A stretch of DNA of 64,000 nt from a virus: IMG/VR virus record IMGVR_UViG_3300025133_000040, positions 32,001 to 96,000 of that record, one strand, 5' to 3'. The notes beneath the pieces were generated by a model. It saw nothing but the letters and a program-made list of their open reading frames with translations. It did no database searches and was not told where the DNA came from. This document shows, piece after piece, positions 2,586 to 59,396 of the stretch (positions are counted from its first letter, which is position 1; each line of letters opens with the position of its first letter). The translations under genes were made by a program, and so were the position numbers.

Positions 2586-3284
2586 TTATTTTTTCTTACT
2601 CTTCTTTAGGGCCTCGTGATATTCTTTAAACTTATCAACACGCGAAGCGCAATGGCGACTTAGCGTTAAGAAACGAATAATCAACTCGGCACAGTCCTGA
2701 ACATCCTTTAGGGCGTCGTGAGCGTTGGTAGCATCAATCTGAAAAAACTCACGCAACGTATCCACCTTGTAGTTAGCAGGCCCATAAGACAGCCCTTCAA
2801 ACCAGTGGTACGCCATACGTTGAACGTCAGCCATGTCACAGTCACGAGGAAAGAACATGGTTTTGATATTGTATTTGTCATTTAGCTTATTGGCAATAGG
2901 AATGTCGAAGCCACCAATGTTGGCTCCACCAGGAACAGGGGCGGTCCACATAGTGCCACCTGGATTAAACCTATTAACAAAATTAGAGAAGAGGCTCCAC
3001 GTCACGTCTTGTGAGGGAGCCTCTCTCCATGAGGTAATGATAGCATCCGTAGTTGTCTTTTGAATCCTTGCGTGCCAGCCGATAGTCTCAAGACGCTCGT
3101 CCGTTAGGTAGTCATCAATCTTGTCAATTCCAGGCGGCTTCATCATTGTGTTAAATTCCGAACCAGGGATAACCTCTAGCTTAATCGGGTCGATAACACA
3201 TGCAGCCACTTGTACCGGGTTGCAAGTCTCTGGCTTAGGACCATCGGTTTCAAAGTCAAATACGAAATACTTTCTTTTGTTCAT
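2586..3284 (-). CDS. DEDDh 3'-5' exonuclease (DnaQ/epsilon-like)
   Basis: VFDFETDG, FDIP, HDALKDV motifs. Confidence 0.9.
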   Translation of the reverse strand: MNKRKYFVFDFETDGPKPETCNPVQVAACVIDPIKLEVIPGSEFNTMMKPPGIDKIDDYLTDERLETIGWHARIQKTTTDAIITSWREAPSQDVTWSLFSNFVNRFNPGGTMWTAPVPGGANIGGFDIPIANKLNDKYNIKTMFFPRDCDMADVQRMAYHWFEGLSYGPANYKVDTLREFFQIDATNAHDALKDVQDCAELIIRFLTLSRHCASRVDKFKEYHEALKKSKKK

Positions 3285-3670
3285 TTTTTATCCTGTATTG
3301 AGTCGTAGTCAAAATCCTCTTCATCGTCTTCGTCTTCTTCAAGTGTAGGGTCTTCTACCTCTCTTGTCAAGGGGAAACCAAACAATTCTTCTACATCGTT
3401 GGTTGAATTCATCTGCTTGATAATATCTTCTGGGAATATGTCGCTGTCTACGGTCGGTTCGACACCCTTTGAGAGCGTAGTCTCAACCACGTCTATACCC
3501 TCAATCAGTTCTACCTTGGTCTTAGCTCCGAACAAGGCGTTGCCAGAGTGGCTAGTAGCATTGTACTCAGGGCAGCAACCTGCCGTCTTCCAGTAAGTCT
3601 TAACTCGTTGATATTCAATGTCATGTATTCTGAAAAATCCGTTCATTGGAACTTCTTTAAACATTAGCAT
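3281..3670 (-). CDS. hypothetical protein with acidic tail
   Basis: ORF between the dnaE halves; start trimmed to the ATG overlapping the end of dnaE-N. Confidence 0.6.
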   Translation of the reverse strand: MLMFKEVPMNGFFRIHDIEYQRVKTYWKTAGCCPEYNATSHSGNALFGAKTKVELIEGIDVVETTLSKGVEPTVDSDIFPEDIIKQMNSTNDVEELFGFPLTREVEDPTLEEDEDDEEDFDYDSIQDKK

Positions 3671-5561
3671 AGTCATAATCAGTAGTCTCTCTTTCTTTTT
3701 TGGTGTTTTGGAGAATGTCTCCAAACTCTAAAATTTCTTGTATGCCCATAATCTTGTCCAACAAGGCGATGCCTAGAATGTCTAGCTTGACCATGCCTAA
3801 GGCTTCCAGGTCATTCATTTCCATTCCGGCTACGAGCATCTTCTTTTTAGTATCATACACCATAGGGCAGTACTCTTCAAGCGGTTCTGGTGAGATAATA
3901 ACACCAGCAGCGTGCTTAGACTGGATGATTTTCGTCCCTTCCAACCGCATAGCTTGCTCAAAACGAGGCCCTAACTCGCCTGTCACGTTGCCGTTTTCAT
4001 CAATGCCGACTCCCCACTCAGCAAAATCCGCTGGTTTTTCCTCTAAGGCGAAGCGAATTAAGGAAGAATCGCCAGTTTCCTCCTTCATTTCCTGAAGTTC
4101 GCCCGCTACTTTGGCGGGGTCTGGAATTAATTTAGTGATACGATTAATGTCGTCGTTACTTAGGTCTGCATATGCCTTGAACACATCCTTTACCGCAGCA
4201 CGACCTTGCATTGTCTGGTAGGTAATCATTTGGCTAACCTTGTCGTCGCCGTACCTGTCCTTAATGTGCTGAATTACTTCCTCTCGCTTAGCAACGGGAA
4301 CGTCCATATCAATATCAGGTAGGGAGATATTATCCTCTGTATTTCTACCCTCGTTGTAGAACCTTTCAATCAGCAAACCATAAGGAATCGGGTCTACCTG
4401 TGTGATGCCAATGAGGTAAGAGATAAGACAGCCTGCGGCTGACCCACGTCCAGGTCCAGCCAACCAACCCTTATCCCTAACGAAGTTAACAATGTCTTGA
4501 CAGATTAGGAAGTACCCAGATAGGTCTGCCCCCTCAAAAATGTCAAGCTCTTTCTTAACTCGGTCGGCGTACTCTTGGTGCTTGTGTTCTGGAACCTTGC
4601 CTGCGATTAGTTTGGCCCAGCCCTCACGACATAATTGCCGTAGATACAGGTTGCTATCCATGCCGTTGGGGCAAGGAAAAGGAGGCAGGATGGGCTTCCT
4701 AGTAATTTTGAAGTCCTCAATCTTAGCATCAAGCTCCAGAGTGTTTGCCAGTTCTTCCTCAGTGTGTCCGTACTCTATCATTTCCTCGTACGAGGGGATG
4801 TGAAAGCGGTCTGAGTTGAAGAAGCAGTTAAGTTGAAACTCAGGCTTCTTGCCGTTGCGTAGGTTGGTCCCCATACCACGACACAGAAGGATGTTCTGGT
4901 CGGGTGCTTGGTCCTGAGTCGCATAGTGAGCATCGGGCGTTGCTATCACAGGGATTCCTGTTCTGCGCCCCACCTCGCGTACCATCTCAGTCACCTTACG
5001 TTGTAGTGGCTCATAGTCCGCTAAATACAACTGTGTTTCAAGGTAGAAGTTTCCCTTGCCGAACGCCTCTTGCATTTCCAGAGCTAGTCTAACACCAGCA
5101 TCCATGCCTGAGCTAATCAGCATGTTGGCTAGGCATGAGCCTAGGTGCCCACTAAAGCCTATGATGTTACCATCTAGGTATTCTTTTAACTGTTCAAACG
5201 ACAGGCGAGGGCGACGGTAGAAGTGGTCGGGGTGGTTAGATGCTGAGGTAATCTTAATCAGCTTCATCCAGCCCTTGTAGTTCTTACACAGAACAGGGAG
5301 GTGGGACATTTTAGAGTTCTCTGGTTTCTTGACAGAGGCATCTAGCTTAGAAATGTAAAGCTCGCAACCCAGAATAGGCTTCTTACCTGCGTCCCTCATA
5401 GCTTTAGAGAATTGTACCACACCGCTCACAGAACCATGGTCTGTTAGGGCACAGCTACCCGCATCAATAGCCTCAATACGTGCCGCCATCTGCTCAGGCT
5501 GAGCTAGGCCATCCAGAAGAGAGAAATGTGAGTGGCAATGGAGGGGGGTGTACTTTTTCAT
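3657..5561 (-). CDS. dnaE: DNA polymerase III alpha subunit, N-terminal half (PHP, palm, thumb)
   Basis: LHCHSHFSLLDG, LTDHG, GPGRGSAAG, PDIDMD, HAAG, KLDILG. Confidence 0.95.
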   Translation of the reverse strand: MKKYTPLHCHSHFSLLDGLAQPEQMAARIEAIDAGSCALTDHGSVSGVVQFSKAMRDAGKKPILGCELYISKLDASVKKPENSKMSHLPVLCKNYKGWMKLIKITSASNHPDHFYRRPRLSFEQLKEYLDGNIIGFSGHLGSCLANMLISSGMDAGVRLALEMQEAFGKGNFYLETQLYLADYEPLQRKVTEMVREVGRRTGIPVIATPDAHYATQDQAPDQNILLCRGMGTNLRNGKKPEFQLNCFFNSDRFHIPSYEEMIEYGHTEEELANTLELDAKIEDFKITRKPILPPFPCPNGMDSNLYLRQLCREGWAKLIAGKVPEHKHQEYADRVKKELDIFEGADLSGYFLICQDIVNFVRDKGWLAGPGRGSAAGCLISYLIGITQVDPIPYGLLIERFYNEGRNTEDNISLPDIDMDVPVAKREEVIQHIKDRYGDDKVSQMITYQTMQGRAAVKDVFKAYADLSNDDINRITKLIPDPAKVAGELQEMKEETGDSSLIRFALEEKPADFAEWGVGIDENGNVTGELGPRFEQAMRLEGTKIIQSKHAAGVIISPEPLEEYCPMVYDTKKKMLVAGMEMNDLEALGMVKLDILGIALLDKIMGIQEILEFGDILQNTKKERETTDYDYANV

Positions 5562-31535: not shown

Positions 31536-32475
31536 TTTTCATAAACAGTGAATGAGTCAAAGGCTTCGACCCCTTACGAACCTGAACACCGTCAAGCAAG
31601 CTGCCATCCGTAATGCCCGTTGATATAAAAGCACAGTCGCCCCTCACTAGGTCGTTTTCGTTTAAAATCTCTCCGCACTTAACAAACCTTGAACTACCGT
31701 CCATCATTCGCTCAACTTCTTCCATCTCAAAGCCCCCTCCAAGGCACTTAACTGCGGCAGCAGAAATAACAGCCTCAGGTGCGCCGCCGATACCACAGTA
31801 CAGGTCGATGCCAGAGTTAGGTAGACACGTAGCGATAGAGGCATTAACATCACAGTCTTGAATAAGTTTAATCCTACAGCCAATTCCCCTTAGTAGTTCA
31901 ATGCTGTGTCCGTTACGCGGCCTATCAAGCATACACACCGTAACTTCATTAACCTGCTTCTTTAGCGCGTCAGCCACCATGGTAGCTACCTCACTAATAG
32001 GAAAATCAAGCTGGTGGTACTTGTCGCCTCCGTACCTGTTGTCAATGTATTTCTTAGTGCGAGGTCCATAGCACATCTTCATTACGTAGTGAGCCTCGGT
32101 TGTGTACATCGTGTCAGGGCCAGAGAAAGCCATTACAGAACTAGCCTCAGGCCCACCTTTAGAGGTTTGAGTTGTGCCGTCTACAGGGTCTACAGCAATG
32201 TCATAGATTTTCTCCCACTGAGAGTCTTTCTTATTAACATACTTACCAACGCCTCTGTACTCGCCAACCCACTCACCGTCAAAGAGCCCAGGAGCCTCGT
32301 CCTTCTTACCCTCACCAATAACAATCTTACCACAGATAGGCATACGGTTGAGTCTGTCTCGCATTGCCTCTGTTGCCGCCCCATCTGCCCCGTTCTTATC
32401 CCCGCCACCAATGTAGGACGACGCCGCAATAGCAGCCGCTTCTGTCACCCTAATTAAATCTAACGAAAAATTCAT
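31489..32475 (-). CDS. glpX: class II fructose-1,6-bisphosphatase
   Basis: RVTEAAA, IVIGEG..DEAP, DIAVDPVDGT, LDRPR, GIGGAPE, TGITDG. Confidence 0.95.
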   Translation of the reverse strand: MNFSLDLIRVTEAAAIAASSYIGGGDKNGADGAATEAMRDRLNRMPICGKIVIGEGKKDEAPGLFDGEWVGEYRGVGKYVNKKDSQWEKIYDIAVDPVDGTTQTSKGGPEASSVMAFSGPDTMYTTEAHYVMKMCYGPRTKKYIDNRYGGDKYHQLDFPISEVATMVADALKKQVNEVTVCMLDRPRNGHSIELLRGIGCRIKLIQDCDVNASIATCLPNSGIDLYCGIGGAPEAVISAAAVKCLGGGFEMEEVERMMDGSSRFVKCGEILNENDLVRGDCAFISTGITDGSLLDGVQVRKGSKPLTHSLFMKSASGTYREIRTTHGN

Positions 32476-51904: not shown

Positions 51905-51968
51905 AGAGGAAGGACGGAATCGAACCGTTTGACATTGGAGTTGCAATCCAACGCCCCGCCACGAGGCA
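51905..51968 (-). pseudogene. tRNA-Cys(GCA) lacking a matching 5' acceptor strand
   Basis: D, anticodon (TTGCAAC) and T arms present; 3' strand CTTCCTC has no partner because the upstream ORF stop abuts it. Confidence 0.6.
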
Positions 51969-52541
51969 TTAGTCTCCGACCTCTGATACTACCTTATCAT
52001 ACCCCTTAAACTTAGTTTGCAGGCCCCTTTTGGCTGCCACAACATTTTCAAGGTCGAAAAGCGTGAGTTTTCCCTTATATACACCCATATTCTGTTTTAT
52101 GCAGTCTGGGAAACACATTTTCGTTTCTTTCGTCCTCTCGCAGAGAAGACCAATCATCTGAGCCCACTGGTGTTCGTTGTTTAGTCTTTTGGCCTTGTGC
52201 ATTACGTAGCCACGAACATCTGCGTCATCATCAAGTATAACGCCAACAAGGGCAGAGGTCAAGGTGGAATCGTAAAATTCTGAAAGGACTCCGTCTAGGA
52301 TGTTGCTTGCCCATAAAAAATCTTTAGCCCATAATTTATATATTGTATCACCTCTAGCAAAAAGCTCTCTACGGTATATAATGTTGCGAGTCTTATATCC
52401 AGTTCCCCATGGTTCCGGCCCCTTCTTAGTAACTAGTCTCGCTGTTTCTTCGTAGCGGAACGTCTCGTAGCCGTGAGCGGCCAACATCATCACAATTGGA
52501 ATGAACTTGTCGTCATTTGTGGTGAGGCTTGGTCTTCGCAT
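51969..52541 (-). CDS. protein-kinase-like fold hypothetical protein
   Basis: IYKLW, GYVM, DCIKQN..LFDLE resemble kinase catalytic motifs. Confidence 0.5.
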   Translation of the reverse strand: MRRPSLTTNDDKFIPIVMMLAAHGYETFRYEETARLVTKKGPEPWGTGYKTRNIIYRRELFARGDTIYKLWAKDFLWASNILDGVLSEFYDSTLTSALVGVILDDDADVRGYVMHKAKRLNNEHQWAQMIGLLCERTKETKMCFPDCIKQNMGVYKGKLTLFDLENVVAAKRGLQTKFKGYDKVVSEVGD

Positions 52542-52728: not shown

Positions 52729-52800
52729 CTCATTTTGTAAAAAAAATTTTTTGACGATTTGGTTTAAACGGCTACTTTTAGAGCTTCGCTCTTAAATAAA

Positions 52801-53059
52801 AAGGCGAATCGTCTGACATTCGTCTAGGCTTTTCAGCCTTCCCCACCATTACGTGAATGTGGCAATTACTCACCACCCAAAGATGCACTAACCCGACTAT
52901 CACTAGGTCGCTCACGCCCTAAGTCTGTTTAGCTTGCACGCATTGTGGTACAAGCGGCCTAAGCCTCCCACAAGGAGCGATTGTGCCCTGAACTTGTCCT
53001 CTAGGTGCTACGCACCCAGCGTCAGACTATATAGCCAGGGTTCTGTAAATTCGTCTCAT
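52801..53059 (-). ncRNA. circularly permuted RNase P RNA-like gene
   Basis: 5'-ACAGAACCCTGGCT (CR-V/P4 3' strand), GTCTGAC (P2), P3 hairpin, GAGGACAAGTTCAGGG (CR-I), ..., GGAAGGC-hairpin, TAGACGAAT (CR-IV), GTCAGAC (P2'); own promoter. Confidence 0.75.
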
Positions 53060-53065
53060 GTCTAA

Positions 53066-53093
53066 AGTATACACTAGAACGGGCTGGAGTCAA
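53066..53093 (-). promoter_or_regulatory. conserved promoter of the RNase P-like RNA
   Basis: TTGACT-N16-TATACT. Confidence 0.8.
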
Positions 53094-53284: not shown

Positions 53285-53356
53285 TGCGACTGCTCGGTAC
53301 TGCCCCGAGTTCTCTGAGTTGGAAGCCCAGCGTTCTACTATTTCTACTACAATCGC
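53285..53356 (-). tRNA. tRNA-Gly(UCC)
   Basis: loop CTTCCAA; variant T-loop GGCAGTA. Confidence 0.75.
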
Positions 53357-53767: not shown

Positions 53768-53919
53768 GGGTCAATGAGACTATAATCACCATGAGTAATC
53801 TTTTGTTGTCGTACTCACAACGTCCGTTGGACGATTTACGCCTCCGAAGAGAACTCCTGCCAGGGAGTCGATTAACAACGTGTCCACCTACCAAGTAGGT
53901 AATCACTCGCGACTGCAAT
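53768..53919 (-). ncRNA. candidate multi-stem ncRNA
   Basis: GAGTGATT/GATTACTC enclosing ACCTAC/GTAGGT, ACTCC/GGAGT, a TTCG hairpin and CGTCC/GGACG. Confidence 0.4.
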
Positions 53920-53924
53920 ATTTA

Positions 53925-54600
53925 AGAGCCTGCGTTAGCTCTATCTAAACAACTACTCAACCGCATCCATTAACTCTGCCTTGCGAGCAGTTCAACTCCG
54001 CTAGGAGTTTAGTCGCTTTCCTCGATTAACTTGATTGACCTTGCGAGTCGCCCAAGTCAGTATTACCCCGAAGGGCTACCGAATTAAGTCGCTTTCGTTG
54101 TCTAGTGTGTCAGGACTTTTGCTTTGGTTAAAAATACAGGAATCGAACCCATACAGATTGTTTGATACAACAATTGCCCTACCGTTAGGCTAATTTTCAT
54201 TTGGCGAGAGACGTGCTGACACAGTTGCTCCATATCCTTTTGGGATGCAGAATACAACACGCCTCTCTGTACAGAGTCTTGCGGACTCTTATACCGTAGT
54301 TCAAGAGAAGGTGTGCCCCCTCTCTCTCATACTACCACATCCCACTTGTTTGCAGCTTGCAGAATGTAGTTACTGTTCCTTCCTCAGAAGTAAACTGTTA
54401 AATCCCTATCCCAGGCTATCACCTCTGGGAAGTAGTCGATAGTGTTACCCTCGTGCTACTTTCAGGCAGTCGTTCTTCCTATTGCCCATTACAGGACAAC
54501 AAGGAAAGGTCAGCTTGAATGAATGGACTCTTACGAGCGACAGCTTGCCACGCTGCCTTTGGGGAGATTGCTCTCCTTACCCTAATGACTTCATACAGCC
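53925..54600 (-). ncRNA. GOLLD-like large RNA with embedded tRNA-like element
   Basis: GTGTTGTATTCTGCATCCCAAAAGGATATGGAGCAAC..GCACG domain, GCAAAAGT, repeated GAAAGCGACT and CTCGCAAGG; lies inside the tRNA array; family from remembered consensus. Confidence 0.6.
54125..54199 (-). other. tRNA-like element with 8-nt aberrant anticodon loop and encoded CCA
   Basis: normal acceptor/D/T arms; loop TGTATCAA. Confidence 0.65.
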
Positions 54601-59301: not shown

Positions 59302-59386
59302 TGAGAAGTAAGGGAATCGAACCCCCTGCCGCCACCGCACATATTAATGGCCAGTGGGCTACAACCACCGATGCGGAATACCTCTC
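59302..59386 (-). tRNA. tRNA-Tyr(GUA) lacking a D-stem
   Basis: loop TTGTAGC; 10-nt D-replacement CCGCAT complementary to GTGCGG in the enlarged variable arm. Confidence 0.7.
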
Positions 59387-59396
59387 ATGTTTTGCC

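Follow-up and report, generated by a model that had tools for sequence, protein, structure and literature searches.

Can a virus carry an RNase P RNA of its own, and can such an RNA be laid out in a rotated order? This is the question raised by a short unit in the DNA of an uncultured marine phage, IMG/VR virus record IMGVR_UViG_3300025133_000040, of which positions 32,001 to 96,000 were analysed here (64,000 nucleotides (nt), hereafter the window). To our knowledge, RNase P RNA is among the few universal ribozymes; the 5'-to-3' order of its parts and the P1 helix are regarded as fixed features, and every annotation model relies on them. The unit, ~264 nt from promoter to terminator (53059-52796, minus strand), lies after the terminator of a tRNA-Gly gene. 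Our preferred explanation, which we hold with slightly better than even confidence, is that it encodes a circularly permuted and highly derived RNA related to bacterial type-A RNase P RNA, and that this RNA would act as a ribozyme.

The unit is non-coding, as all of its open reading frames (ORFs) are short and without a family match, and its homologue (see below) differs from it by compensatory changes and large insertions and deletions. In the RNA numbering used here nt 1 is A53059 and nt 264 is position 52796, on the minus strand. A promoter/terminator scan placed the upstream terminator after tRNA-Gly at 53129-53110 (minus strand), followed directly by a sigma-70-type promoter (53066..53093, minus strand) consisting of TTGACT (53093-53088), a 16-nt spacer and TATACT (53071-53066), which agrees with the consensus at 10 of 12 positions and is identical in L268, a 10-kb metagenome contig of a related phage that carries the same tRNA-Gly, terminator, promoter and RNA. 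Transcription would start near A53059. At the opposite end, the U-run UUUUAU (nt 259-264, to 52796) marks the 3' boundary, just after which the homologues diverge: the sequences of L268 and of the metagenome runs X7 and X11 are identical to the unit up to the U-run and unrelated to it from 52794 on, and the unit is therefore a self-contained module that ends there. Taken together, these sequence features support a structured RNA that is transcribed independently from its own promoter; among the public runs listed as containing the RNA there is no RNA dataset. The first-pass annotation of this locus had described a ~260-nt non-coding unit with its own TTGACT-N16-TATACT promoter directly after the tRNA-operon terminator, carrying RNase P landmarks in the rotated order CR-V, P2 5', P3, CR-I ... 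CR-IV, P2 3' (CR, conserved region), and in all of these points it agrees with our analysis, including the minus-strand coordinates of the elements that it named.

Read from its 5' end, the RNA (all elements on the minus strand) begins with one strand of an end helix, AGACGAAU (53049..53056; nt 4-11), which stands at the position of P19, pairs with 52802-52809 and repeats, letter for letter, the CR-IV core found much further downstream. It is followed by what is normally the 3' end of an RNase P RNA, a CR-V-like element (53033..53046; nt 14-27; DNA ACAGAACCCTGGCT, RNA ACAGAACCCUGGCU) in which a J2/4-like ACAGAA precedes the 3' strand of P4, CCCUGGCU. A 5-nt linker, AUAUA (DNA ATATA; 53028..53032; nt 28-32), closes the position of P1 and leads into the 5' strand of P2, GUCUGAC (GTCTGAC; 53021..53027; nt 33-39), which is a perfect 7-bp complement of 52811-52817, the P3 hairpin (53001..53019; nt 41-59) and the CR-I-like GAGGA[C]AAG[U]UC[A]GGG (52986..53001; nt 59-74; DNA GAGGACAAGTTCAGGG, RNA GAGGACAAGUUCAGGG), which comprises J3/4 and the 5' strand of P4 with U68 bulged. 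A non-canonical middle domain of 147 nt (52839..52985; nt 75-221) with the helices h1, hX, h3, h4, Ha and Hb separates this 5' module from a P18-like hairpin, GGCU-GAAA-AGCC, capped by a GNRA loop (52827..52838; nt 222-233), the CR-IV-like UAGACGAAU(G) of J18/2 (52818..52826; nt 234-242; DNA TAGACGAAT), which fits the genuine consensus, the 3' strand of P2, GUCAGAC (GTCAGAC; 52811..52817; nt 243-249), and the 3' strand of the end helix, AUUCGCCU (52809-52802; nt 251-258).

The RNA shows the P2-P3-P4 pseudoknot topology known from the catalytic core of RNase P, in circularly permuted form. In this fold ACAGAA-CCCUGGCU pairs locally with AAG[U]UCAGGG to make P4 with its bulged U, the 5-nt loop takes the place of P1, and the 5' and 3' ends pair at the site of P19. 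The P4 that the first-pass annotation had drawn with a bulged U does form in the minimum free energy (MFE) structure of the isolated 5' module, where it counts 8 bp (nt 20-27 with 66-74), leaves U68 bulged and encloses P3. P2 pairs over a long range, with seven perfect pairs right after CR-IV. The new ends, for which the same annotation had also proposed pairing at the P19 site, make seven of eight possible pairs (AGACGAAT/ATTCGCCT, 53056-53049 with 52809-52802), the remaining one being an A.C mismatch.

The first alternative to be weighed is that the RNA belongs to a new class of structured phage RNA that does not descend from RNase P, resembles it by chance or convergence and has another function near tRNA or RNA repair, for example as a scaffold, a regulator or the partner of some protein. 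The role of chance was assessed with motif matrices built only from 48-54 genuine type-A RNAs, applied with a 5-bit indel penalty to 264-nt windows, against a background of 68,000 Markov-simulated and 20,936 real windows, the latter biased against the claim because many of the loci were fetched for matching these very motifs. The CR-V-like element reached 17.3 bits with one inserted U (p=1.2e-4 per window), the CR-IV-like CCUAGACGAAUG 13.8 of 18.6 bits (p=2.9e-3 per window; reference motif AGNNNAAU) and the CR-I-like element 11.8 of 27.6 bits (p=3.3e-3 per window; reference motif GAGGAAAGUCC). The CR-I alignment takes two insertions, which speaks for a separate class. Against it, the joint chance of the three motifs, as the product of the p-values, is ~1e-9 per window, a figure to which motif order, the perfect 7-bp P2 that follows CR-IV at once and the U-bulged P4 make no contribution; none of the 68,000 simulated and none of the 20,936 real windows reached the observed score on even two motifs. 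The likeness of the unit to RNase P is thus more than chance.

A comparison with ~90 genuine RNase P RNAs of type A, taken from three phyla, extends this likeness beyond the motifs themselves. In many of them, including those of the phylum sampled around G001, a P19 hairpin sits exactly between the 3' strand of P2 and ACAGAA, that is, at the site where the ends of the phage RNA pair, which is a further point against an unrelated class. In an alignment of 35 genuine RNAs (A2), a GNRA-capped P18 is followed by C[CU]AGA[UGC][GAU]AAU[GA] and then by the 3' strand of P2, and the phage sequence GGCU-GAAA-AGCC-UAGACGAAUG-GUCAGAC fits this P18-CR-IV-P2 3' module. Because both its position and its GNRA loop match the genuine module, we read the hairpin before CR-IV as P18, in place of the minimal GGC/GCC P15 that had been suggested for it. 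Within genuine P4, the base that follows ACAGAA pairs with the base three places beyond CCGG, and this pair is variable, occurring as C-G, A-U, G-C or U-A.

Natural variants of the RNA provide a second line of evidence. Pattern scans of viral, metagenome and genome contigs yielded two assembled copies beyond the window, L268 and L014; all other matches to the exact and degenerate patterns were either chance or the 3' ends of ordinary RNase P RNAs. A single substitution in the middle domain sets the L268 RNA apart from that of the window, and it turns one GNRA loop into another (GUAA -> GCAA); L014 sits in a 126-kb record that is the nearest relative by DNA polymerase III (Pol III) alpha (63% identity). 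In addition, at least 12 marine metagenome runs, which belong to 12 studies, contain the RNA (variants occur in ~15 runs, X1-X15, mostly marine and also subsurface), and a comparison of four metagenome runs with the unit gave two further natural variants (X11/X13 and X14). The window and L014 were compared by anchor-based numbering, a MAFFT alignment of the three copies having been mis-registered by the insertions of L014. Of 60 proposed pairs, 42 are unchanged, seven are changed on one side and ten on both sides while still pairing, and one is non-standard, namely the A.C in the end helix of the window, which is A-U in L014. P2 has changed from GUCUGAC/GUCAGAC in the window to GACUAAC/GUUAGUC in L014 by two double compensatory changes, and the end helix (GACUAAG/CUUAGUC in L014) by two double changes along with the repair of the mismatch; in X14 the 5' strand of the end helix, GGCGAAU, is a perfect complement of the 3' strand. 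The P3 element is a hairpin in all of its three natural versions, with 8 bp in the window, 9 bp and a CUCG loop in L014, and 16 bp in X11/X13 through an 18-nt insertion and two substitutions. The P18-like hairpin reads GGC-GAAA-GCC in L014, and in the middle domain h1, hX, h3 and Hb have one double change each, Ha two double and three single changes, and h4 three single changes. The expansions of L014, of 62 nt and 146 nt, fall at two peripheral sites. The homologues support the proposed fold.

The same comparison separates what has changed from what has not. Between the window and L014 the CR-V-like and CR-I-like strands, and with them both halves of P4, as well as the AUAUA linker show 100% identity, in contrast to the flanking helices, which have diverged. 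The active-site strands are the most conserved parts of the RNA, and that the invariant parts are exactly those of the RNase P active site is hard to square with an unrelated RNA class. So is the behaviour of the sole variable pair of P4: in X14, C20U and G74A turn the closing C-G pair into U-A, a change that falls on the homologue of E. coli C353-G74 and thereby on the pair that is variable in genuine RNase P. By our own estimate, the chance that one of the six mismatches in ~136 nt of X14 complements the exact partner of another is ~1%.

A number of results weigh against an RNase P reading, and they are collected here. The covariation of P2 and P4 that the first-pass annotation had named as a check was found for P2, and for P4 it consists of a single pair in one 151-nt X14 contig with a depth of 2, P4 being invariant between the window and L014. 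No RNase P family of Rfam (RF00010, RF00011, RF00373, RF02357) gave a score at E<=10 on the unit, the window or L014, on the unit no other Rfam family did so either, and RF00010 was blank in both phage records (G000 and G096). Searches with nhmmer returned no match at the locus, neither with an ordinary profile of genuine RNAs (sets of 35-57) nor with a rotated, P1-less profile of 35 genuine RNAs. Two covariance models were built from genuine RNAs only, on segments that stay contiguous under rotation: R1 (P18-CR-IV-P2 3') had no match at the locus, and R2 (P2 5'-P3-CR-I) placed its best match in the window on the proposed P3, with 9.8 bits and E=2.2. In two places the core itself is unlike any of the genuine RNAs examined, as J3/4 has one C more and distal P4 one additional A-U pair. 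CR-II and CR-III are absent from the middle domain in profile and covariance model searches, and the "compact S-domain" (specificity domain) of the first-pass annotation lacks support; P5, P15 and J5/15 are not assignable, as h1, hX, h3, h4, Ha and Hb do not map to P5-P15. A P1 helix joining the ends is likewise missing, the AUAUA loop standing in its place and the ends pairing at the P19 position. Among relatives the RNA is rare: R3, a covariance model of the 5' module, applied to 50 related IMG/VR records found it in the L014 record and in none of the other 49, including four that are 95-100% complete, and RF00010 had no match in the 50 relatives, which hence offer no RNase P RNA in normal order as a bridge. 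Finally, a 98-codon ORF with a good ribosome-binding site lies within the L014 copy (2935-3231, minus strand).

Some detail may be added on the last two points. A candidate in G120 (R3, 12.9 bits) was judged to be noise, and a synteny search with the 190-aa ORF downstream of the unit led to the L014 record only. The L014 ORF starts from GGAGG, a 7-nt spacer and ATG, and spans both expansions and the homologous segments between them; its product would have a coiled-coil-like start and a Cys/His-rich end, and has no relative among 5.8 billion protein clusters and weak matches only among PHROGs. A coding reading of the unit was rejected, given that its own ORFs are short and without family and that the frame of the L014 ORF is closed by UAA in the window.

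The blank searches are what a new RNA class would predict, in that every RNase P profile or covariance model fails and that 147 nt, over half of the RNA, form a conserved architecture of their own without an RNase P counterpart; further large RNAs without a known function, among them GOLLD (171 bits), also occur in the same phage. We attribute the failures of the models to the extra C in J3/4, the extra A-U in distal P4, the P18 of 3-4 bp and the non-canonical middle, and that of R1 specifically to the P18-like hairpin having 3-4 bp where genuine P18 has 8. Weighed against the joint motif statistics, the conserved active-site strands, the P4 pair and the pairing at the P19 site, a class with no descent from RNase P appears rather unlikely. 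We do not file the RNA as a member of the RNase P family, because model score, P1 and S-domain were each tested and came back negative; the RNA probably derives from the type-A family, however, and is predicted to work as that family does.

Descent from RNase P does not by itself imply catalysis. The RNA might have kept the core that binds protein and substrate and turned into a decoy or sponge that captures host RnpA or pre-tRNAs, or it might regulate the RNase P of the host in the course of infection. Such a role would accord with a core that is altered in J3/4 and one pair longer in P4, with the loss of P1, P5, P15 and the S-domain, with the lack of a phage RnpA (PF00825 was not found in G000 or G096) and with a 3' tail that can alternatively sequester CR-IV. 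On the other hand, conservation is highest in ACAGAA, the bulged U, GAGGA..AAG and AGAYGAAU, as expected for catalysis more than for binding alone, and activity is known from RNAs as poor in S-domain as those of Pyrobaculum (type T) and yeast mitochondria (RPM1). A non-catalytic descendant is in our judgement distinctly unlikely, and we continue with the ribozyme reading.

The alternative pairing of the 3' tail arises from a repeat. The 8-mer AGACGAAU is present twice on the minus strand, as the 5' strand of the end helix (53049-53056) and as the CR-IV core (52818-52825), the equivalents in L014 being GACUAAG and GAUUAAU. The tail is able to pair with either copy, and with the CR-IV copy it makes a weak terminator-like hairpin (-4.4 kcal/mol). 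The repeat may have been left behind by a tandem duplication, or it may serve as a conformational switch.

A second possible conformer involves the middle domain. At nt 163-170 lies a conserved 8-mer, GUCGGGUU, which has the same sequence in L014. It is able to pair with AACCC in the 3' strand of P4 (52894-52897/53038-53042, minus strand), a pairing that the full-length MFE structure favours above P4 and that may represent an alternative conformer. The domain is otherwise built from h1 (87-92/112-117), which encloses a hairpin of variable length (window 10 nt, L014 72 nt), hairpin h3, the pseudoknot-like hX, which pairs nt 80-84 with the loop of h3 (nt 148-152), hairpin h4, the GNRA hairpin Ha (184-201) and the 3-bp hairpin Hb (205-216), whose loop GUAAUG is conserved. 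Three further pairings were dropped since they are not kept in L014, namely GUCUG with ACAGAC (nt 133-137), AAUCG with CGAUU, and an 8-bp hairpin GCUUGUAC/GUGCAAGC.

That both ends of the transcript lie in one helix also suggests a different possibility, in which the gene is permuted and the working RNA is not a linear permuted molecule, its ends being joined into a circular RNA (e.g., by a phage RNA ligase) or the transcript being processed further. An RNA ligase family protein (PF09511) is among the products encoded in the window, and in algae the tRNAs of permuted genes pass through circular intermediates as they mature. Still, the end helix alone would be enough to hold a permuted RNA together, as it is in engineered permuted RNase P RNAs, and we regard circularization or further processing as very improbable.

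What, then, would a permuted RNase P RNA do for this phage? The window contains at least 30 tRNA genes, in an array at 34274-60446 (minus strand) within which the unit lies. Adjacent tRNAs are often just 3-4 nt apart, and a precise endonuclease is therefore needed to separate them; encoded CCA is missing from 29 of 30 genes, such that the GGU loop of L15, which binds CCA in the canonical ribozyme, would find nothing to bind, in keeping with its absence from the phage RNA. After the discriminator, nearly all of the window's tRNA genes have C and then U, and the commonest base at -1 is U. As phage-encoded RnpA is lacking, a protein partner from the host is assumed. In the mechanism that we propose, the RNA, probably together with host RnpA, would cleave the 5' leaders of the tightly packed, CCA-less pre-tRNAs of the phage, and the lineage-specific 147-nt module with its two GNRA hairpins would have taken the place of both the canonical specificity domain and CCA-binding L15. 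The permutation itself probably began with a tandem duplication, after which the outer parts would have been lost, a route suggested by the copy of the CR-IV core that directly precedes ACAGAA at the 5' end. The genomic context, with its CCA-less, close-packed tRNA array and its RNA ligase, fits a role in pre-tRNA cleavage. For the complete scenario, that is, a natural virus-encoded permuted RNase P ribozyme that works with host RnpA and has P1 looped, its ends in P19 and, in place of the S-domain, a module peculiar to the phage that would suit pre-tRNAs arranged back to back and lacking CCA, we put the prediction at evenly balanced.

The array holds other elements of note. An Rfam tRNA match of 38 bits at 53285-53356 (minus strand) is absent from the ARAGORN listing, and the matching slot in L268 is tRNA-Gly(tcc), directly upstream of tRNA-Val; weak tRNA-like signals (tRNA-Sec model, 25-26 bits) fall in otherwise unassigned gaps at 51908-51977 and 59302-59387 (minus strand). 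The GOLLD RNA (RF02032, 171 bits) lies inside the array at 53774-54267 (minus strand), and embedded in it is a tRNA-like element (54125-54199) with an abnormal anticodon loop, which is the only one in the window with an encoded CCA. GOLLD was not found at the gathering threshold in L268, which comes from a near-identical phage, and by sequence it looks like a presence/absence difference between close relatives.

The source contig is a 111.8-kb IMG/VR viral contig with an estimated completeness of 74%. Besides the RNA ligase family protein, the window encodes a split Pol III alpha, DnaB, primase and a class II ribonucleotide reductase. Pol III alpha occupies two ORFs (minus strand), with a PHP and an NTPase domain at 3657-5561 and finger, HhH and OB domains at 900-2585, and the ~1 kb between the two halves contains a 232-aa ORF (2586-3284, minus strand). 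A protein search with Pol III alpha for the closest cultured phage gave no identity above 34%, and blastn of the unit against phage records gave no match to a cultured phage.

In the searchable literature we found neither a published virus-encoded RNase P RNA nor a natural permuted one. If the RNA is active, the RNase P core would tolerate rotation, loss of P1 and replacement of the specificity domain in nature, and phages could carry their own tRNA-processing ribozyme alongside their tRNA arrays. Standard covariance models would then systematically overlook such genes, and a compact natural scaffold of 264 nt would be at hand for studies of the minimal catalytic core.

Set beside known systems, the phage RNA is closest to bacterial type-A RNase P RNA (rnpB, E. 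coli M1 RNA; RF00010), with which it has in common the ACAGAA of J2/4, the bulged U of P4, the GAGGA..AAG of J3/4, the AGAYGAAUG of J18/2 immediately following a hairpin with a GNRA loop, a P2 of 7 bp, a variable P3, a helix at the P19 position and covariation at the same pair of P4. It departs from that RNA in its rotated gene order, with the new ends in the loop of P19 and P1 as a 5-nt loop, in the extra C of J3/4, the extra A-U of P4 and a P18 of only 3-4 bp, and in having no P5, P15/L15, P6-P17 or S-domain (P7-P14, CR-II/III) and no model score. The reduced but active RNase P RNAs of Pyrobaculum (type T, RF02357) and of yeast mitochondria (RPM1), whose specificity domain is largely lost or unrecognisable, likewise keep a catalytic core with P4, CR-I and CR-V; unlike the phage RNA, which has a different structured module of 147 nt and no match to the RF02357 model in the Rfam scan, they retain P1 and the normal order. 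Permutation as such has precedents of two kinds. Engineered circularly permuted RNase P RNAs are laboratory constructs, in which holding the ends by a helix suffices, and natural permuted tmRNAs, a different RNA, are cut into two pieces. These man-made and natural permutants share with the phage RNA the principle of reaching the same fold from a rotated order, with the old ends looped and the new ends placed in a peripheral helix.

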